Under the pieces are notes generated by a model. It was not told where the DNA came from and searched no databases. It saw only the letters and a list, made by a program, of their open reading frames with translations. Source: a virus (Duplodnaviria; Heunggongvirae; Uroviricota; Caudoviricetes). From it: DNA of 64,000 nucleotides. How positions within the stretch are numbered: position 1 is the first letter of the stretch; every line of letters starts with the position of its first letter. The stretch lies in IMG/VR virus record IMGVR_UViG_3300035696_000002, one strand, 5' to 3'. The translations under genes and the position numbers were made by a program. Shown here in pieces: positions 1,449 through 44,574 of the stretch.

Positions 1449-3728
1449 ATGACACTCAACTCGATCCTTCTTCGCCGCACGAACAAGTTCCTCCTGCCGG
1501 AGCACAAGACCAAGACTGTGCTGCCGGGCGATGTCGTCGCCACGTTCAACCTGAACCTCCAGTCCTTGGGGTACACTCTGTCCTCGTCTGCCCTTAAGGC
1601 GGTGAAGCATCTCTCCCCGGATGCGGTGAAGTCTCTGTTCAAGGAAATCACTGCGACTCTGGCCGAGGCACGCGGCGTGAAGAACTACAAGCCGATGTAC
1701 CCGAACTTCCCCGAGCAGGTGATGGAAGCCACGGACGCCGAGTTGTATCTGAACGCGATCCTGCATTACTTCACCGTGTGGGTTGCCGATATCACTGGCT
1801 CCGGTGCAGATGCGGACTTCATCTATCTGCCGAAGTACACCAAGGAAAAGCGTGAGCCGCTGGACGAGAAGGTCAAGCTGACGGTTCTTAACATCGCCAA
1901 GGAAGACGAACTGGGCGTGCTGGCGACTCGCATCGCTACGTCCAACACGTCGCTCTCCGCGACCGATCAGGAAGAGTTGATCGCTCTCGTCGAGAGCGGT
2001 TGGTTCGATCTGTCCACGCAGATTCCGCAGAAGGAAAATCTCGCGATCATCACGGCGATCCTGATTGACAAGGTCGTCAAGGGCCGCAAGCTGCCGCTGT
2101 TGCAGTTGTTCCCGGACATTTTCGCACAGTTCAAGACGGCGACGGATGTACTGCGTCTGGCGACGGCCCTGTCTGGCGGCGACGTGTCTCTGGCTGCCGA
2201 TACTAAGTTCAAGTCTTTCAAGCGTTCGATCCGTCGTTCGCTGCTCCAGTTGCTCAATGAGGCTGGTTCCATCGAAGAGGATATGCTTCGCCATGCCAAC
2301 CGTTGGGTTGCCCTGAGCGAACGCCTGCATCCGGGCGAGTTCCACACGAAGTTCGACAAGGCGTACACCGCCTTCTGGAAGCTGCGTAATCAGTGGCGTC
2401 CGGGCGTCCCGAAGATTGAGACGTTCAACTCGAAGATCGAGGCCTTGGTTGGCGGCAACGCTGTCGAGACCCGTGAAGTAAACGTGCTCAAGGCTGTAGC
2501 TTTGCTGAGCAAGCGTCCGGGAGATTTTGCCCGCCGTCTTGACTCGCTGCTCCGCTTCAATCAGGCGAAGGGTACCCGTGTCGTTGAGGCCTTTGCGAAG
2601 GTTGCTGAGGAAGTGTCCACCCCGGTGCTGTTGCAGGTGATGGCTCACTTCAAGAACCGCAACAAGAACGACATGCGTGTCGTGTTCCCGAAGGGGAATC
2701 TGGCGAAGGTTCAGGCGATCTCTGGTCGTCGGGAAATTCTGCTGCACGAACTGACCTCGGCTGTTGTGAAGGTGGTCGAAGAGGCCCTGACGGCCCGCTT
2801 TGCTAAGCTGCCGAAGCTGGGCAAGGTGTACGTCGATCCGAAGCTGGCGGACTACCTCGTGCCGTTCTCGCAGCGGTCTGCCAACGCGGCACTCCGCACG
2901 CTGGTACGCGGTTCCCGCATTGAGTTCCCGGCAGACAAGAACACCATCCGCTTCTTCATCTGGTGGAAGAACATCGCTGCAAAGGATGCTCGTCACGAGA
3001 GCGAGGATTCGCCGTACTACGGCTACTCGGATGGTCGCGTTGACCTTGACCTGTCGTCCATCATGTACGATGAGAACTGGAAGCAGATGGAGTACATCAC
3101 GTACTACAACCTGCGTTCGGCTCACTACAAGGCCTGCCACAGCGGTGACATCACCACGGCACCGAAGGGTGCGTGTGAGTTCATCGACGTGGACATCCCG
3201 TCCATACTGAACTACGGTGGGCGTTATGTTGTCATGATGGTGAACAGCTTCACCGGGCAGAACTTCTCACAAATCCCGGAAGTTGCTGCTGGCTGGATGC
3301 TTCGCGAGAAGCCGCAGTCAGGGGAAATCTTCGAGCCGAAGACTGTGCTCGACAAGATCAACGTCACCAGCGAATCCAAGCAGGTGATGCCGATGGTTCT
3401 GGACTTGGTTGAGCGTAAGGTCATCTGGGCCGACGCTGCGATCAAGGCGAACGGCGGACGTTATGGCCGCATCTGGGGCAACAACGTCGCGAACAACTCT
3501 GATTCGATCTCGCTAATCGGTCAGGCGTTCACCAAGATCAAGAAGCCGAACCTTTACGAACTGTTCACCCTGCACGCCGCTTCGCGTGGTCGGCTGGTGG
3601 GCGATCCGACGAAGGCCGATGTTGTATTCTCGGTCGAGGCGGGTACACCGTTTGAGTTGGAGAAGATCGCGTCTGAGTTTATGCCCAACGCTAACGCAAA
3701 GGGCAAGGCGAAGGCCGCGAAGAAGTAG
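1449..3728 (+). CDS. large helical (ROT/TROVE-like) protein with C-terminal TerD domain
   Basis: TerD-like motifs VDLDLS, HSGDIT, EFIDVD, VNSFTGQ; N-terminal helical region with TATDVLR and RPGDFARRLDSLLR. Confidence 0.75.
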   Translation: MTLNSILLRRTNKFLLPEHKTKTVLPGDVVATFNLNLQSLGYTLSSSALKAVKHLSPDAVKSLFKEITATLAEARGVKNYKPMYPNFPEQVMEATDAELYLNAILHYFTVWVADITGSGADADFIYLPKYTKEKREPLDEKVKLTVLNIAKEDELGVLATRIATSNTSLSATDQEELIALVESGWFDLSTQIPQKENLAIITAILIDKVVKGRKLPLLQLFPDIFAQFKTATDVLRLATALSGGDVSLAADTKFKSFKRSIRRSLLQLLNEAGSIEEDMLRHANRWVALSERLHPGEFHTKFDKAYTAFWKLRNQWRPGVPKIETFNSKIEALVGGNAVETREVNVLKAVALLSKRPGDFARRLDSLLRFNQAKGTRVVEAFAKVAEEVSTPVLLQVMAHFKNRNKNDMRVVFPKGNLAKVQAISGRREILLHELTSAVVKVVEEALTARFAKLPKLGKVYVDPKLADYLVPFSQRSANAALRTLVRGSRIEFPADKNTIRFFIWWKNIAAKDARHESEDSPYYGYSDGRVDLDLSSIMYDENWKQMEYITYYNLRSAHYKACHSGDITTAPKGACEFIDVDIPSILNYGGRYVVMMVNSFTGQNFSQIPEVAAGWMLREKPQSGEIFEPKTVLDKINVTSESKQVMPMVLDLVERKVIWADAAIKANGGRYGRIWGNNVANNSDSISLIGQAFTKIKKPNLYELFTLHAASRGRLVGDPTKADVVFSVEAGTPFELEKIASEFMPNANAKGKAKAAKK

Positions 3729-3916
3729 TGCCAAAGAAAAAGAAAACTCGCTACTACCACTACGCCATCATCTGTCCGTATCCAGAGATCGGGCAGGTGG
3801 GCTGTGGCTGGGCGAGTTCTCTGAAAGAAATGATCGGCCAGTTGGAAGACAAGTGCGACACGGCAAAGCGTATGCTGGTTCGTGATTGCCCTGTCTGTAA
3901 GGAAAGCAACCGATGA
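3728..3916 (+). CDS. hypothetical protein
   Basis: ORF track; coupled. Confidence 0.5.
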   Translation: MPKKKKTRYYHYAIICPYPEIGQVGCGWASSLKEMIGQLEDKCDTAKRMLVRDCPVCKESNR

Positions 3917-4359
3917 TTTTCGAAGTAATCAATCCGAGCGACCCTGTTGTTTTCGAGACGGAGAATTTCGAGGCAGCAGCGGTCGCTTGTGTTATAGTGG
4001 GCGAAGGCCGCTATGGCTTGCAGGGCACCGTCAATGACATCCGATGGGAAGTTCCCCTGTTTCTGTTTGGTGGTTCTGACGAGTGGTTCACGGCTTCTTT
4101 CGGCCATGACCTGCAAACGTCGGTAGCCAAATTCATGGACACTCCCGAGGGCCGGGCCGAACTGGCGACCGTGCTAGAGTCTTTCATGATCGGCAAGGAA
4201 GAGGATTTGGTCAGCTACAAGAAGGCCTTGGAACTGATCCCTGCTGAGAAGCAGGCGGAATGGCGAGATCACTGGAAGGAACAACGCCGCTCCTCACTGA
4301 ACGACATTTGCGATTATGCTTGGCGTGTAGCCAAGAACCTACGTAAGAAGAAAGGGTAA
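3913..4359 (+). CDS. hypothetical protein
   Basis: ORF track; ATGA overlap. Confidence 0.7.
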   Translation: MIFEVINPSDPVVFETENFEAAAVACVIVGEGRYGLQGTVNDIRWEVPLFLFGGSDEWFTASFGHDLQTSVAKFMDTPEGRAELATVLESFMIGKEEDLVSYKKALELIPAEKQAEWRDHWKEQRRSSLNDICDYAWRVAKNLRKKKG

Positions 4360-4362
4360 GTC

Positions 4363-4605
4363 ATGGCTGTCATTACGCGAGGCAAACCCGGCGACTTGAA
4401 CTACGTCGAAGGGACATGCAAGGCAGTTAAGCGACGCATCAAGGGCCAGAAACATCCAATCGTTACGATCCGTGATGGAGTTGAAGGAACGGGCGTATCG
4501 CTACCTTTCACCTGTGGCTTTTGCAAGGACTCACTCGGACGGCCCACTGTGGCTTTCCGATCTCGGAAACAGAGGAATCAGCACACCAACTTCTGTCCGA
4601 AATAA
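4363..4605 (+). CDS. basic protein with C2H-type Zn motif
   Basis: CGFC...H...C. Confidence 0.55.
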   Translation: MAVITRGKPGDLNYVEGTCKAVKRRIKGQKHPIVTIRDGVEGTGVSLPFTCGFCKDSLGRPTVAFRSRKQRNQHTNFCPK

Positions 4606-4757
4606 CGACACCCCAGAGCGTTTTGGCATGGGACACTCTCCCCCGGATTTAAGCCGGGTAAGAGAAGATGCACGTGGCGATGCCACGGCTGATACCGCCG
4701 ACGTAATGGATAGGGGGGACTAAGGCCGCATGCAGCCGAAGTCCCCTCGGGCCTTTT
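4606..4757 (+). ncRNA. putative structured intergenic RNA
   Basis: hairpins CCCGG/CCGGG, CGTGGC-GAT-GCCACG, GGGGACT/AGTCCCC in a 150-nt gap. Confidence 0.4.
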
Positions 4758-5192
4758 ATGACCATCCGTATCGGCTTTACCGGGACGAACAAAGGAATGA
4801 CGCAGGGGCAGAGATTGCAGCTTGCCGCCCTGTTCACCGTGCTCAAGGCTGAATACGACGGGCACCTGATTGAGTTCCACCATGGGCTCTGCATCGGTGC
4901 CGACGAGCAGGCCGCGAAGCTGGCGAAGCAGTTTGGCTTCCGCGTTATCGCTCACCCCGGTTTCAACTCCCGCAAACCCAAAGACACGATGTTCCGTTCG
5001 GATTGGACTGGCAGCGACGAAACCCGCACAGCCGAGCCCTTCCTCAAGCGAGATCGTGGTATAGTGGATGAGACGATACGTATGATCGCTACCCCTCTTA
5101 CCCGCGAGGAACAAGTGCGGTCAGGAACATGGACAACAGTACGCTATGCTAGAAAACAGGGGAAACAGGTGGACGTTCTATATCCCGCATGA
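4758..5192 (+). CDS. SLOG/DprA-like nucleotide-binding protein
   Basis: IGFTG, HHGLCIGAD, RDRGIV, SGTWTTVRYA motifs. Confidence 0.7.
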   Translation: MTIRIGFTGTNKGMTQGQRLQLAALFTVLKAEYDGHLIEFHHGLCIGADEQAAKLAKQFGFRVIAHPGFNSRKPKDTMFRSDWTGSDETRTAEPFLKRDRGIVDETIRMIATPLTREEQVRSGTWTTVRYARKQGKQVDVLYPA

Positions 5193-39310: not shown

Positions 39311-39551
39311 GTACGAATTTGAGGGCGTGAAGCACACGCTCGAAATCGACCAAGACATTTGGGATCACACGCAACGCTACGTTCTCGATCAGATCGCAAT
39401 CATGCAGCGTCACGGTTCACAGCCTGATCCGCCTCTGACGCAGGCCCAGTTCGAGGACTTGGTCTATGTCACGGCGAAATATCCGCAACAGGTTCGCAAT
39501 TTGAGGAAGAAGAATGAAACCCCTACGATTAGTCGGCCCGACTCAATATGA
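39288..39551 (+). CDS. hypothetical protein
   Basis: GGAGG RBS. Confidence 0.55.
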   Translation: MVAQEKPKYEFEGVKHTLEIDQDIWDHTQRYVLDQIAIMQRHGSQPDPPLTQAQFEDLVYVTAKYPQQVRNLRKKNETPTISRPDSI

Positions 39552-40275
39552 GCGTCTGATGGACGCCGTCAAATACTACCAGCGGTTCGGCTATACCTAC
39601 CTCGACGTGCCGTGGGCTGTATCCAAAGAAGCTGTGGACATCACCCGGCCAAAAGAGTCAACAGGAGAACTGCCCCACTATACGGTGGATGCAGGAACGA
39701 AGGTGCAGCGACACGGCGGATGGTACAGCAACGCCACGGAAATTTATCCTGTAGCCTCGGCTGAGCAAAGTTTCTTACAGCTTCAGTTGACCAACGTGAG
39801 ATCGAGTTTGGATTCACGCGACTCAGGCGGCTATGTCACGCTTACTCCGTGTTTCCGTAACGAACCAATTCTGGACGACCTACATCAGCCGTATTTCATG
39901 AAAGTGGAGTTGATCGACTGGACGGGTGTTTCATCGAATGATGTCCATGACATGATCCAACTCGCTTACGAATTTTTCTCCGAGTACCTTCCGGTGGACG
40001 TTGTCGAGAACAAGGAAAAAGATGCGGGGGCCTACGCATTCGATATCGTGTCACGCCGAGGCCGTATCGAGGTAGGGAGTTACGGTGTCAGACAAAACGA
40101 AACGGTCGGTCTGTGGCTTTACGGGACGGGCTGTGCGGAGCCGCGATTGAGTTATGCCATCGAAGTCGAAGACAGGAAAAACCAGCCGAACCAGTCGGCC
40201 CAAACAAACTCCGCGTCGGGCAAACTCGGAGACCTCCTCCCCGCGTCCGAAGACTACCTCACCCGGCAAGGCTAA
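39514..40275 (+). CDS. stand-alone class II aminoacyl-tRNA synthetase-like catalytic core
   Basis: SAEQ, motif-2-like PCFRNE..H..YFMKVEL, EVGS, motif-3-like GTGCAEPR; no anticodon domain. Confidence 0.7.
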   Translation: MKPLRLVGPTQYERLMDAVKYYQRFGYTYLDVPWAVSKEAVDITRPKESTGELPHYTVDAGTKVQRHGGWYSNATEIYPVASAEQSFLQLQLTNVRSSLDSRDSGGYVTLTPCFRNEPILDDLHQPYFMKVELIDWTGVSSNDVHDMIQLAYEFFSEYLPVDVVENKEKDAGAYAFDIVSRRGRIEVGSYGVRQNETVGLWLYGTGCAEPRLSYAIEVEDRKNQPNQSAQTNSASGKLGDLLPASEDYLTRQG

Positions 40276-41014: not shown

Positions 41015-41644
41015 ATGACCCTCGAAGAAACGTTGTCACAAGTGTTCGCGGCAGAGGGAATCACGCCGGAGCACCAAAAAGAGATTCTGGCTTACCTCAC
41101 CGTATTGAAGCAACGCGATGAGAAAACCTACGAGCACTCAATTCGAGTCGCTTTGAAGACAGTTGAGATCGTGAAGCAGGCTCACATGCCCGGCATCACA
41201 CCGCGAATGATGCTTTGGGCCGGGCTCCTGCATGACATCGGCAAGACGCTTATCCCACCGGAGCTATTGAAAAAGACGGGCGGCTTTACTGAGGCAGACT
41301 ATCAGGGCATGGAGCCGCACGTAGAGTATGGCTGGAAGATGCTCCAAGCCTGCCACGACTACACAGCCCACATCATCGTCCGGCATCACCAATTTGGCCC
41401 CAAACCCTACCCATCAGTCCTTCCCGACCTACCCGGCTACCTCAAAGACAAACGCGGCATGATCGACACAGCAGCCCGACTCCTGTCTCTGGCCGACTAC
41501 TACGACGCTATCGCGACCCGGCAGAACAACAAATTTGGAAAACCGCTGACCCCGGAAGAGAAGAAAGCCCAGTACGAGAAAGACAACGCCGACCGGGCGG
41601 AGTTGGTGCTCCAGCTTGAAATTGCTGGAATCTTGCGATTTTAG
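41015..41644 (+). CDS. HD-GYP-like phosphodiesterase
   Basis: EHSIRVA, LHDIGK, HVEYG, HH, PYP, ADYYDA. Confidence 0.85.
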   Translation: MTLEETLSQVFAAEGITPEHQKEILAYLTVLKQRDEKTYEHSIRVALKTVEIVKQAHMPGITPRMMLWAGLLHDIGKTLIPPELLKKTGGFTEADYQGMEPHVEYGWKMLQACHDYTAHIIVRHHQFGPKPYPSVLPDLPGYLKDKRGMIDTAARLLSLADYYDAIATRQNNKFGKPLTPEEKKAQYEKDNADRAELVLQLEIAGILRF

Positions 41645-41646
41645 GA

Positions 41647-41662
41647 CGCCTTAGTAGAGGCG
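41647..41662 (+). promoter_or_regulatory. RBS-sequestering hairpin
   Basis: CGCCT-TAGTAG-AGGCG, 3 nt before ATG. Confidence 0.45.
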
Positions 41663-41665
41663 GAG

Positions 41666-42193
41666 ATGTCACTTAACATCGAAAAACTGCACGCAGCAGC
41701 CAAAAATGGCAAGGTCGCCGCGACCGAAGTCAAGGCCCCCGGCAAGTACGATATTGGCCTAAAATACAGCATTTTCTTGGCTGGTGCCATTGACCAAGGT
41801 GCCGCCGTTGACTGGCAGAAGCAGGTCGCCCGTGCCCTTGACGATCTTGATGTCCTGATCCTGAACCCCCGCCGTGACGATTGGGACTCCTCGTGGGAAC
41901 AAACCGCCGACAACCCTGAGTTCCGCAACCAAGTGGAGTGGGAACTGGGTGCTCAGGAGAACGCCGACATGGTGATCTTCGTGTTCACCAAGGACAGCAA
42001 GGCTCCGATCACGTTTCTTGAGTTCGGCCTGTTCGCTCCGAAGAAAGACGCCATGGTTTGTGCTGAGGAGGGATTCTATCGGCAGGGCAACCTCGACATC
42101 GTCTGTCAGCGGTACGGCATTCCAATCTACCACAGCCTTGACGAAATGGTCGCTGATCTCCACACGGCGTTAGAGGACAAAGTCAATGGGTAA
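41666..42193 (+). CDS. nucleoside 2-deoxyribosyltransferase-like protein
   Basis: IFLAG, DWQ, LNPRR, QVEWE, PITFLEFG, GNLD. Confidence 0.85.
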   Translation: MSLNIEKLHAAAKNGKVAATEVKAPGKYDIGLKYSIFLAGAIDQGAAVDWQKQVARALDDLDVLILNPRRDDWDSSWEQTADNPEFRNQVEWELGAQENADMVIFVFTKDSKAPITFLEFGLFAPKKDAMVCAEEGFYRQGNLDIVCQRYGIPIYHSLDEMVADLHTALEDKVNG

Positions 42194-43334
42194 GCACGTA
42201 TTCGTCCTGACGGTCGTTCAAGGTGAGTGTGAGTACCCGGTCGCTGTGGTCACCGATCAGCAGGTTGCTGAGCAGTGGCGATCTGAGGCAAGAACTGGCA
42301 CACATAACTGGATTCCTCTGGAAGAGGATGATCTCGATACAGCACAGGGCTACGGCGGATTCACCACATTCAAACCTAAACCCAAATCCAAAAGAAACGA
42401 GCCTAGCCCGGTGACTCAGGACATGGAACGCATCCAGAAAAATCTTGAAGAGATTCAGCGGATGCAGAAACGGCGTAGCTCATGGCTGTTCGAACCGAAG
42501 GCTGCGAAGCCGCCCGTTGAGCCTACTGAAGGAGAACACCGCGAACAGTACGAGAAGTACTCCCCGCACAAGTACCGGGGGTACGCTGATGGGAACACGT
42601 GTTACGTCTGCTCCGCAAAGCGGAGTGTGCACCCGGAGACCCTTCCCCAAGAGCAAAAGCAAGAAGAACAGCCCAAGCCTCAGGTGCAACAGCAACAACC
42701 GAAAGAGGAGCCTAAGCAGCAACAGGCCCCCCAGCAGAGAACGCCGGAAGAGGAGTCGGCTCAGGCAGACTTCGATACGGAGATGGGTTTCGCCAAAAAC
42801 CTCCTCGCCGGGCAGGTGACCATCGAACAATTCCCATACTACGCCAGCTATAAATCCACAATTGATGCGGAGAGTAAACTTCTTCCGGCTGGCGGACGAG
42901 TATTATTTGTAGGTGGAGGCCCGATTCCCCTGTCGAGCATTCTGTTTGCCCAAAACGGATTCACAGTCGATACTTTGGAGTTGAACGGTGAAGCGAAACA
43001 GGTGGGTGAGCAGGTCGCCAAAGCTGTTGGTGCCCCGGTCGGCAAGTTCATGACTGGCGATGCCCGAACATTCAATGGCTACGCGGCCTACGATGGGGTT
43101 ATAATCGCATTAGAAGCCGGGCCTGAGGCCGTAAGCAAGTCTGCCGTGGTGAAGAACATCATGGCCAATGCGAAGCCGGGAACGGTCATTCTGGCTCGTG
43201 GTACGGCTGGCGGTGGTGGGGATGCTTTCGTGGATACGGCAAAAAGTCTGCCGCCCGGCGTCCGCATCACAAACGCGATCAGCACGTTTGACGGCCTGAG
43301 CAAAACTTACGCAATCGAGAAAACCAATGGTTAA
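42186..43334 (+). CDS. nicotianamine synthase-like (SAM-dependent aminocarboxypropyl transferase) domain with long N-terminal extension
   Basis: FPYYASY, VLFVGGGPIPLSSILFA, YDGVIIA, PGTVILAR match NAS-family blocks. Confidence 0.75.
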   Translation: MGKHVFVLTVVQGECEYPVAVVTDQQVAEQWRSEARTGTHNWIPLEEDDLDTAQGYGGFTTFKPKPKSKRNEPSPVTQDMERIQKNLEEIQRMQKRRSSWLFEPKAAKPPVEPTEGEHREQYEKYSPHKYRGYADGNTCYVCSAKRSVHPETLPQEQKQEEQPKPQVQQQQPKEEPKQQQAPQQRTPEEESAQADFDTEMGFAKNLLAGQVTIEQFPYYASYKSTIDAESKLLPAGGRVLFVGGGPIPLSSILFAQNGFTVDTLELNGEAKQVGEQVAKAVGAPVGKFMTGDARTFNGYAAYDGVIIALEAGPEAVSKSAVVKNIMANAKPGTVILARGTAGGGGDAFVDTAKSLPPGVRITNAISTFDGLSKTYAIEKTNG

Positions 43335-43650
43335 ACTAACGCCAAAAGCAGTAGAAAAAGTGAAAGAGATCATGGAGGCCCAAGACCCGAAGCCTGCCGC
43401 ACTGCGGCTGGGCGTCATCGGCGGAGGCTGTTCCGGCTTCTCGTACTCCATGCAGTTCGACAACGAAAAGGGCATGATGGACAAAGAGTTTGAATTCGAG
43501 GGGCTGAAGCTCCTTGTCGATGCCACGTCGATGATGTACCTCGACGGCTGCGAGGTTGACTACCTCGAAACACTGGAAGCGTCCGGGTTCAAGTTCAATA
43601 ACCCGAACGTGAAGAGCACATGTGGGTGTGGGTCAAGTTTCAATGCCTAA
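43327..43650 (+). CDS. iscA: A-type Fe-S carrier (IscA/HesB)
   Basis: GGGCSGFSY, NPN..TCGCGSSF. Confidence 0.95.
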   Translation: MVKLTPKAVEKVKEIMEAQDPKPAALRLGVIGGGCSGFSYSMQFDNEKGMMDKEFEFEGLKLLVDATSMMYLDGCEVDYLETLEASGFKFNNPNVKSTCGCGSSFNA

Positions 43651-43800
43651 CGAAGATTGGATTACCGAAGGGCACGTCATCCCGCTTGAGGTACAGGAAC
43701 AGATTGCTCGCGACCTAGCAAAGCGGGCACAGGAAGATCACATCCGCATGTTTGGTAGCTGCACGGTGCTCTGTCTGCGGCCTGAGAAAGCTGAGGAGTG

Positions 43801-43995
43801 ATGGAACTGACACGGGAAGAGGAGTTGTTCTACTGTTTCGCACCAGTCCTCGTGACTTTCAACGAATGGAAGCAACACCCAGAAAAGTTTTTGCTGGGCA
43901 CCGACATGGACAGGTATTTGCACGAAATGAGGCAGTATTACAAAGTGACTGTCGGCGAGTGGGACACGATCATGAAAAGGTTTGAGGAGAGATAG
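43801..43995 (+). CDS. hypothetical protein
   Basis: GAGGAG RBS. Confidence 0.55.
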   Translation: MELTREEELFYCFAPVLVTFNEWKQHPEKFLLGTDMDRYLHEMRQYYKVTVGEWDTIMKRFEER

Positions 43996-43996
43996 T

Positions 43997-44188
43997 ATGG
44001 GCTTAAGGGATGATGACGAGCAGATTTTCCGGGATCGTGCTTTGCTGGATTGGGCACGTGAGGCTCCACGGCCTCGTGATTATGACGCAGGGCCGATGAG
44101 CGAAGAGGAATCGGCGGCTCGCGAACACGCAACACGCAAATGGCTTGAGAAGAAGCCGCGTAGACGCCGCTACGCAGACGAAGACTAA
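43997..44188 (+). CDS. hypothetical protein
   Basis: GAGGAG RBS. Confidence 0.55.
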   Translation: MGLRDDDEQIFRDRALLDWAREAPRPRDYDAGPMSEEESAAREHATRKWLEKKPRRRRYADED

Positions 44189-44574
44189 TGGCATACAGCG
44201 ACAAGGTTCTCGACCACTACAACAATCCCCGCAACGTCGGCTCCATGGATAAAGCGAGCCCGGACGTAGGGACAGGTCTGGTTGGAGCACCTGAATGCGG
44301 CGACGTGATGAAACTCCAGATCAAGGTTAACAAAGAAACTGGAGTGATCGAGGATGCTAAGTTCAAGACCTTTGGTTGCGGCTCCGCAATTGCCTCATCC
44401 TCGCTCGCGACTGAGTGGGTCAAGGGTAAAACGATTGATGAAGCCCTTGCGATCCAGAACATGGAGATCGTAAAGGAACTCAGCCTGCCGCCTGTCAAGA
44501 TTCACTGCTCCGTCCTCGCCGAAGACGCCATCCGTGCGGCAATCGCAGATTGGAAGAAAAAACAGAGTGTCTAA
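44188..44574 (+). CDS. iscU: Fe-S cluster scaffold IscU
   Basis: NPRNVG, GAPECGD, GCGSAIASSS, LPPVKIHCS. Confidence 0.95.
   Translation: MAYSDKVLDHYNNPRNVGSMDKASPDVGTGLVGAPECGDVMKLQIKVNKETGVIEDAKFKTFGCGSAIASSSLATEWVKGKTIDEALAIQNMEIVKELSLPPVKIHCSVLAEDAIRAAIADWKKKQSV

Follow-up and report, generated by a model that had tools for sequence, protein, structure and literature searches.

The nicotianamine synthase (NAS) family has so far been known for enzymes that make small metal chelators. In the thermonicotianamine synthase of Methanothermobacter thermautotrophicus (MtNAS), Glu81 and Tyr107 deprotonate the acceptor amine (PMC10491745), and the equivalent E77Q and Y106F mutations abolish the activity of AtNAS1 (PMC10248798). 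A second group of described systems is formed by the polyvalent proteins of phages and conjugative elements, on which the LPD domains and the ART-PolyVal domain were defined (PMC5512222); that paper makes no mention of a NAS-like domain. The protein described here, P0001, bears on both. It is encoded in a stretch of 64,000 nucleotides from a Caudoviricetes virus (IMG/VR record IMGVR_UViG_3300035696_000002), referred to below as the window, and its C-terminal part is an N-terminally shortened NAS-like domain with relatives in giant polyvalent proteins.

The open reading frame (ORF) at 42186-43334 on the plus strand (382 aa) was confirmed as a real gene. A protein identical to P0001 is found on eight metagenomic contigs from at least four samples, the longest of which is 463,087 bp. 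All copies of the gene are identical in nucleotides, and two of the loci (L001 and L002) have 100% nucleotide identity to the window. Since these three sequences agree in every nucleotide, the fusion of the NAS-like domain to an unrelated N-terminal module is no assembly artefact.

A shortened NAS domain with its catalytic residues kept

Residues were compared in an alignment of 38 near relatives from the short clade to which the domain belongs (see below) and 17 NAS proteins of classical length. The features of P0001 that carry the assignment, including its binding site for S-adenosylmethionine (SAM), are the following.

42186..43334, plus strand: the whole P0001 ORF (382 aa), comprising an N-terminal module, a unique middle stretch with a linker, and a truncated NAS-like domain
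42741..43331, plus strand: the truncated NAS-like SAM-dependent domain, residues 186-382 (197 residues), equivalent to MtNAS residues 68-266
42780..42782, plus strand: E199, counterpart of the catalytic Glu81 of MtNAS (E77 in AtNAS1, E84 in CntL), found in every one of the 38 short-clade and 17 classical sequences
42831..42851, plus strand: the FPYYASY block, which contains Y222
42849-42851, plus strand: Y222, counterpart of the catalytic Tyr107 of MtNAS, invariant in both groups and aligned to position 107 of the 3fpe chain
42912..42929, plus strand: the GGGPIP glycine-rich SAM-binding loop, residues 243-248 (G243-x-G245-P246-x-P248)
43113..43115, plus strand: E310, in the L-E-A-G motif peculiar to the clade after strand 4; 37 of the 38 short-clade sequences have Glu here

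The original prediction, made from the sequence without database searches, recognised a NAS-like C-terminal domain by four blocks in the order of the family, and this is borne out. Residues 195-342 match profile positions 72-233 (of 276) of the Pfam NAS family (PF03059) with 53.1 bits, against a cut-off of 27.1, and an E value of 3.8e-14, and MtNAS chains match P0001 by sequence with an E value of 3e-7. All four blocks are located, as FPYYASY (216-222), VLFVGGGPIPLS (239-250), YDGVIIA (302-308) and K318...PG...L.R338.

The AF2 model of residues 186-382 (pLDDT 94.7) has the order of strands and helices expected of a class I Rossmann SAM-binding domain. The best Foldseek matches to it are MtNAS (TM 0.78-0.79, E 2e-12) and CntL (TM 0.77), and the nearest clusters in the ESM Atlas are NAS with TM values of 0.86-0.89. 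Structural comparison with MtNAS and CntL, which had been proposed as the check on the assignment, places both enzymes above the generic methyltransferases. VIA-align superimposes MtNAS at Z 21.3-21.8 [root mean squared deviation (rmsd) 2.2-2.3 Å for 191-192 of the 197 residues, 21-22% identity] and CntL, through its residues 71-264, at Z 19.6 over 187 residues, while the best methyltransferase reaches Z 18.3 with 176 residues aligned. The ESM Atlas also holds further short clusters (185-215 aa), labelled NAS or PCMT and drawn from Bacillota and Thermoplasmatota, which give TM values of 0.76-0.81 to the model.

Beyond the catalytic pair, G243, G245 and P248 of the glycine-rich loop, together with E229, K318 and R338, are invariant in the 38 short-clade sequences and invariant or nearly so in the 17 classical ones. 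The clade has diverged widely, its members being 27-57% identical to the query, and such strict conservation across it argues for selection on NAS-type chemistry. Two other positions serve as signatures of the clade. At the equivalent of position 310 all 17 classical proteins have Leu or Met, within a motif that reads A-L-V-G, and at position 225 the clade has Thr instead of Leu. By analogy with the class I methyltransferase fold, E310 would lie near the sulfonium of SAM.

The closed N-terminal chamber is the one family-defining feature that is absent from an otherwise sound NAS/CntL assignment. In MtNAS numbering the domain begins at residue 68, in CntL numbering at residue 71, and it is without the complete N-terminal helical part that closes the NAS reaction chamber. 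Sequence and model together describe what appears to be an intact, N-terminally shortened enzyme domain of the NAS/CntL family, for which transfer of a 3-amino-3-carboxypropyl (acp) group and release of methylthioadenosine (MTA) are predicted. The GC content is 0.55 in the domain and in the window alike, giving no base-composition sign of recent transfer.

The truncated clade and its polyvalent-protein kin

Relatives were found by an exhaustive HMMER search, 346 of them at E <= 1e-3. Word-indexed searches recovered nothing but their queries, which were the whole of P0001, its first 150 residues and the C-terminal part of the related protein P0056 (see below). In a tree of 143 NAS domain representatives, 47 separate from the NAS of classical length with an SH-aLRT support of 97 and a branch length of 0.44. 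These 47 comprise 25 solo proteins, 20 proteins of 687-3,842 aa, one multi-domain protein of 513 aa and P0001 itself, the domain of which is sister to those of the giants P0002-P0004 (SH-aLRT 99, 51-55% identity). Members of the short clade are without 45-70 of the N-terminal residues of classical NAS, and the solo members are 186-215 aa long. By alignment and tree the clade is an unreported, N-terminally shortened group of NAS, separate from the classical enzymes.

Pfam detects the NAS domain in 21 of the 21 multi-domain clade members. The other domains found among them are DUF7178 (in nine), LPD38, LPD22, ART-PolyVal, SLT, NUDIX, GNAT, GGDEF, DUF3293 and Radical_SAM. DUF7178 forms the C-terminal end of the giants P0003, P0008, P0012 and P0014 and is carried by five other giants too; in locus L004 (12720-14144) it is a separate gene directly after the NAS-like gene. 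No mention of DUF7178 was found in the literature.

A further partner is seen at locus L005, where the gene at 813-1367, which follows a solo NAS-like gene, belongs to phrog_3170 and carries the motif HD.FGH...GEENAW. Its product is 41% identical to residues 1136-1288 of P0010, the segment directly after the NAS domain in this 3,326-aa giant, so that in P0010 a phrog_3170 domain is fused behind the NAS-like domain. Since phrog_3170 occurs as a neighbouring gene at one locus and as a fusion at the other, the solo and fused forms draw on a shared pool of modules, and the two families seem, on sequence, to have a fusion-type link in which the partner is uncharacterised.

The truncated clade probably circulates among uncultured phages, both as a solo protein of ~200 aa and as a module of giant proteins. 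An ORF of 2,998 aa on a viral contig of IMG/VR is among its members. Locus L003 is shown to be viral, being an IMG/VR viral contig, and for L005 a viral origin is supported by its neighbour from a phage (PHROG) family. The original prediction knew of no characterised phage member of the family, and the wider searches agree with it. No clade member was found in 50,697 GenBank phage records (tblastn and megablast), and one narrow peptide pattern run against the GTDB species genomes found no close member. The PLSDB plasmids gave solely a classical archaeal NAS (29% identity) and BFVD gave generic methyltransferases only. Nothing was found in the literature that links NAS or aminocarboxypropyl transfer to phages or phage effectors.

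The gene beside iscA and its variable C-terminus

In the window the P0001 gene stands between a gene for a nucleoside 2-deoxyribosyltransferase-like (NDT-like) protein and iscA, which encodes an iron-sulphur (Fe-S) carrier. The neighbouring genes and the remaining parts of P0001 are listed here.

41666..42193, plus strand: upstream NDT-like gene (PF15891, E 4e-35)
42186..42485, plus strand: N-terminal module of P0001 (N-module), residues 1-100, with a core of ~55 aa that bears a PVAVVTD...AEQW...WIP..EDD-type motif, a short linker and a helix (MERIQKNLEEIQRMQK)
42486..42740, plus strand: middle stretch unique to P0001, residues 101-185, with no counterpart in relatives
42567-42632, plus strand: loose H128-x10-C139-x2-C142-x6-H149 pattern within the middle stretch
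42633-42755, plus strand: Q/P/E-rich linker, residues 150-190, mostly within the middle stretch
43327..43650, plus strand: downstream gene for the IscA-type Fe-S carrier (PF01521, E 1.7e-22)
44188..44574, plus strand: gene for an IscU-type scaffold (PF01592, E 2e-55; also placed by synteny)

P0001 has one recognisable enzymatic domain, and its N-module is without a family or a confident fold. The N-module matches no Pfam or PHROG family, and its ESM Atlas model is weak (pLDDT 0.62), matching small hypothetical proteins at TM 0.25-0.34. Prediction of a complex between the N-module and IscA gave a score of 0.00 (mark 0.32), which says nothing on whether the two bind. The Q/P/E-rich linker and the unrelated N-terminus that had been described for P0001 are both confirmed. 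The H..C..C..H motif placed in that N-terminus is present as a loose pattern, but none of the 25 other distinct related proteins has an equivalent of the stretch that holds it, and its reading as a metal site is therefore unsupported.

The start of the P0001 gene overlaps the 3' end of the NDT-like gene by 8 nt, and its stop overlaps the start of iscA by 8 nt (AATGGTTAA). The latter overlap had been reported correctly, but it is nothing special in this genome, where overlaps are the norm: 18 of 30 junctions in the gene calls of the region overlap, five of them by exactly 8 nt. A scan for promoters and terminators near the P0001 gene gave nothing exceeding shuffled sequence.

A distant relative, locus L006, has the same gene order, with NDT-like, IscA and IscU proteins that are 64%, 80% and 94% identical to those of the window. 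Its middle gene encodes P0056 (301 aa), which has only the first ~100 residues in common with P0001 (43% identity over the N-module) and differs in its C-terminus. Just past iscU this locus carries a gene (3525-4883) for a 452-aa amino-acid permease (AA_permease).

With the NDT-like gene as anchor, 154 related loci were collected. An N-module gene follows the NDT-like gene in 28 of them, which encode 24 distinct proteins, and is itself followed by iscA in 21 of the 28; the module is thus kept at the same genomic position in related phages of peat and soil. Its C-terminus is variable. The module stands alone in 17 loci (102-151 aa), is joined to a domain with a ParB-like motif in seven and to other extensions in three, and is reduced to a 60-aa fragment in one. 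The NAS domain is found in none of the 154 loci, by blastp or with a hidden Markov model (HMM) of the clade. As the N-module is conserved and the NAS domain absent, the latter is best seen as a lineage-specific addition at a variable C-terminus.

The alternative extensions lie at the following positions.

L019 1998-2831; L022 1224-1970; L023 6480-7229: ParB-like N-module proteins with the DG(N/H)HR.RA motif
L026 612-1379; L031 757-1446; L034 827-1567: further ParB-like N-module proteins with the same motif
L027 6477-7220; L039 6558-7211; L057 6495-7022: three mutually unrelated C-terminal extensions on the N-module

The ParB-like class has a C-terminal domain of ~120 aa with a VLDGNHRLRA motif, in which DG(N/H)HR.RA is invariant. 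Its naming goes back to three sub-threshold matches to the ParB superfamily (ddrB-ParB, ParBc_2 and phrog_620, E 0.002-0.09) and to the DGNHR motif, and a profile search of the PDB gave no meaningful match. For the P0056 C-terminus, a single-sequence AF2 model (pLDDT 55) has a Foldseek top 50 made up entirely of GNATs (E >= 7e-3, TM ~0.3), and a sequence match to Naa20 has an E value of 0.76; the extension may be GNAT-like, though this is only a hint. In the L027 extension an LYHGTS near the start resembles the beginning of the ART-PolyVal domain of P0008, an unverified likeness at motif level only (E 0.66).

The original prediction had coupled the NAS-like enzyme to the Fe-S carrier and suggested metal scavenging to feed Fe-S assembly. 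The related loci speak against this, as it is the N-module and not the NAS domain that is conserved beside iscA, and no iscA, iscU or NDT-like gene lies near the NAS-like gene in the six other loci that carry the clade. Nor does a FeoB gene occur among those called in the clade loci L003-L005 and L007-L009. The link between the NAS domain and iscA looks positional rather than a conserved partnership.

The wider surroundings are those of a metabolic region. IscU is the last member of the conserved block of HD, NDT, N-module, IscA and IscU genes. With some small ORFs between iscA and iscU, this block (41015-44574 in the window) recurs in 28 loci, with IscU 85-98% and IscA 59-90% identical to the window. 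The loci that bear it, among L010-L040, L057 and L084, are metagenome contigs and IMG/VR records and include contigs of 455 kb and 436 kb. Nine neighbouring proteins between 39.5 and 46.1 kb were scanned with Pfam. They include a dual-specificity phosphatase (DSP), the HD protein, the NDT-like protein, IscA and IscU, the other four having no family above the cut-off; no opine dehydrogenase, racemase or transporter family was found among the nine. At 39514-40275 lies a 253-aa protein that matches phrog_4806 ('histidyl tRNA synthetase') at E 1e-37, with a weak Pfam signal for class II aminoacyl-tRNA synthetases; it is a paralogue resembling the synthetase core, without an obvious tRNA-binding domain. 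The long ORFs of the window are on the plus strand without exception. Elsewhere the window codes for a polynucleotide kinase, an RNA ligase, a CCA-adding enzyme, an SNF2-type helicase and a NAD-dependent ligase, and is therefore assigned to a large phage. Its largest protein, of 759 aa (1449-3728), has no annotation and matches phrog_33734, a family of unknown function, over its full length (E 6e-100).

Possible roles and comparison with known systems

The explanation that we prefer, and hold with about as much belief as doubt, is that P0001 is a swappable effector, which would move acp from SAM to an amine of some target and would act in conflict with the host or in its takeover, the N-module serving as carrier or adaptor. 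In this 463-kb phage a NAS module would have been grafted, by way of a disordered Q/P/E linker, onto a small conserved N-module protein, the C-terminus of which may be a site where enzymatic domains are swapped in related phages. The domain would bind SAM in the manner of NAS, E199 and Y222 would deprotonate an amine nucleophile, and the 3-amino-3-carboxypropyl group would then pass to this amine with release of MTA. The acceptor could be an abundant metabolite, or an amine carried by a protein, an aminoacyl group or a nucleic acid. With the outer helices lost, the acceptor site may be open to a substrate larger than, or different from, a free amino acid, and the extra Glu of the clade (E310), beside the reactive centre, would suit a cationic acceptor. 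An acceptor related to the host or to infection seems likelier than a metallophore precursor because the chamber-closing helices are absent and because the kin of the domain stand beside ART, GNAT, GGDEF and lytic transglycosylase domains. This company, taken with the cassette-like locus, also suggests the role in conflict or takeover. P0001 more likely serves the phage as a weapon or in takeover than as an aid to Fe-S assembly, and its polyvalent kinship favours two alternatives that the original prediction had offered beside metal scavenging, namely a repurposed acp-transferase acting on a macromolecule, or depletion of SAM.

Several points weigh against the effector proposal. All characterised NAS/CntL enzymes act on free amino acids. 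P0001 is neither a giant nor demonstrably injected, and it is encoded amid genes of nucleotide metabolism and Fe-S assembly, not structural genes. The identities of the alternative C-termini (GNAT-like and ParB-like) are weak, the contigs that carry the rest of the clade are mostly dark matter whose viral origin is only suggested, and the N-module as adaptor is a guess. A more specific version of the proposal is correspondingly tentative, and we would lean against it: the truncated clade may be a hitherto unrecognised class of phage effectors that covalently modify a host macromolecule by placing acp (+101 Da) on one of its amines, with the N-module at this locus directing alternative amine- or DNA-acting enzymes (NAS-like, GNAT-like and ParB-like) to one common target. 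The amine could belong to the N-terminus or a lysine of a protein, to an aminoacyl-tRNA or to a nucleobase.

Among the other explanations, a metallophore synthase is the one that the known enzymes would suggest, as all characterised members of the family produce metallophore precursors (PMC10491745). P0001 would then use SAM and an amino acid to build a chelator of the nicotianamine or opine type, and deliver or buffer metal for the IscA and IscU of the phage. The residues that activate the amino-acid amine are retained, and the gene overlaps iscA and has iscU 0.9 kb downstream. However, the 154 related loci without the NAS domain include the 21 with the same arrangement of N-module and iscA, the six other loci of the clade do without iscA and iscU, and overlapping junctions are the rule in the region. 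The opine dehydrogenase, racemase and transporter families were sought in vain among the nine neighbours, the N-terminal helices that close the amino-acid chamber are absent, and the closest kin of the domain are found within polyvalent proteins; a metallophore synthase is accordingly very improbable. The same low standing is given to an ordinary methyltransferase, or an inactive or structural remnant that is merely NAS-like. The fold is the common one of class I methyltransferases, many of which superimpose at Z 16-18, and generic Methyltransf_25 models touch the same residues in some clade members. NAS and CntL nevertheless lead the sequence matches and the fold matches alike, aligning over the largest number of residues, and strict conservation at 27-57% identity extends to the two NAS-specific catalytic residues and to six others that are invariant in the family.

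A SAM sink, in which SAM is burnt to MTA and SAM-dependent defences (type I and III restriction, BREX) are starved in the manner of the T3-type SAM lyase, is unlikely. The SAM could be cyclised within the molecule, giving azetidine-2-carboxylate or homoserine lactone, or acp could be placed on an abundant amine such as glutamate. Plant NAS carries out azetidine ring closure, and the Rossmann-type AzeJ and VioH and the phage lyase Svi3-3 indicate that SAM cyclisation is accessible (PMC11794875); the domain is found in proteins with conflict-type domains, and an open active site could mean low selectivity. Depletion of SAM fits badly with P0008 and P0017, which have separate methyltransferase domains, and with one giant that has a radical SAM domain, and the strictly kept acceptor-activating Glu and Tyr suggest a defined nucleophile. 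No known phage SAM lyase fold is among the top structural matches, which is an absence of match only. Somewhat harder to credit is that the phage modifies its own DNA, its nucleotides or its tRNAs with acp or a derived group, as part of a block of nucleotide metabolism. The neighbours (HD hydrolase, NDT-like protein, ThyX, dCMP deaminase and dual-specificity phosphatase) would be in keeping with it, as would the polynucleotide kinase, RNA ligase and CCA-adding enzyme of the window, and transfer of acp to RNA is established for enzymes of unrelated folds (PMC10491745, PMC12630136). A core enzyme of this kind should be conserved, yet the NAS domain is unique to this phage when set against the 154 related loci, and unrelated domains replace it at the same position; nucleic acids are not known as substrates of any NAS-family enzyme.

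If the effector proposal is correct, acp transfer, or another NAS-type use of SAM, has been recruited as a tool of attack or takeover, as the phage polyvalent clade suggests. The repertoire of polyvalent proteins would gain a new enzymatic domain, and attachment of acp would be a new type of modification in phage-host conflict. The clade offers a minimal NAS core of 190 aa for SAM enzymology. The locus itself is a natural experiment, with interchangeable enzyme domains on a small conserved protein beside phage iscA and iscU, and could reveal the binding partner of the N-module. It also calls for caution in annotation, as a viral NAS match beside Fe-S genes should not be taken as an auxiliary gene of metal acquisition.

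Compared with MtNAS (PDB 3FPE, 3FPF, 3FPG, 3FPJ and 3O31), P0001 has the same order of motifs and the same combination of a Rossmann SAM-binding domain with two helices that bear the catalytic Glu81 and Tyr107 (E199 and Y222). It differs in being without MtNAS residues 1-67, the outer helices of the chamber-enclosing domain, in its L-E-A-G after strand 4, in its fusion to an unrelated N-module and in its phage rather than cellular setting. CntL, of the staphylopine and pseudopaline pathways (PDB 7C7M, 7C9K and 7C9M), shares the fold and the catalytic Glu (E84, equivalent to E199) and carries out a single acp transfer onto the amine of an amino acid. Its operon contains the opine dehydrogenase CntM and transporters, none of which was matched in the nine neighbours of P0001, and its first ~70 residues have no counterpart in P0001. 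The phage SAM lyases (T3 SAMase and Svi3-3) consume SAM and release MTA, and would be functional analogues if the P0001 domain were a SAM sink, but they have an unrelated fold, are lyases and not transferases (PMC11794875), and show no detected similarity to P0001.

At the level of the locus, the architecture resembles that of polymorphic effectors and toxins: the N-module keeps its place, its C-terminus takes at least five states, and the genes on either side share 64-94% identity between the window and L006. Unlike such systems, the locus has no immunity gene, secretion signal or delivery domain, and the commonest form of the protein is without a C-terminal domain. The polyvalent proteins (Iyer et al., 2017; PMC5512222) differ in size and setting from P0001, which has only 382 aa and one recognisable enzyme domain and lies among metabolic genes. 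The P0001 domain is nested among the domains of proteins of 1,100-3,800 aa that carry ART-PolyVal, LPD22, LPD38, GNAT, GGDEF and SLT, the ParB-like and GNAT-like alternative C-termini at the locus echo the polyvalent repertoire, and solo versions occur beside fused ones, as described for other polyvalent domains (PMC5512222).

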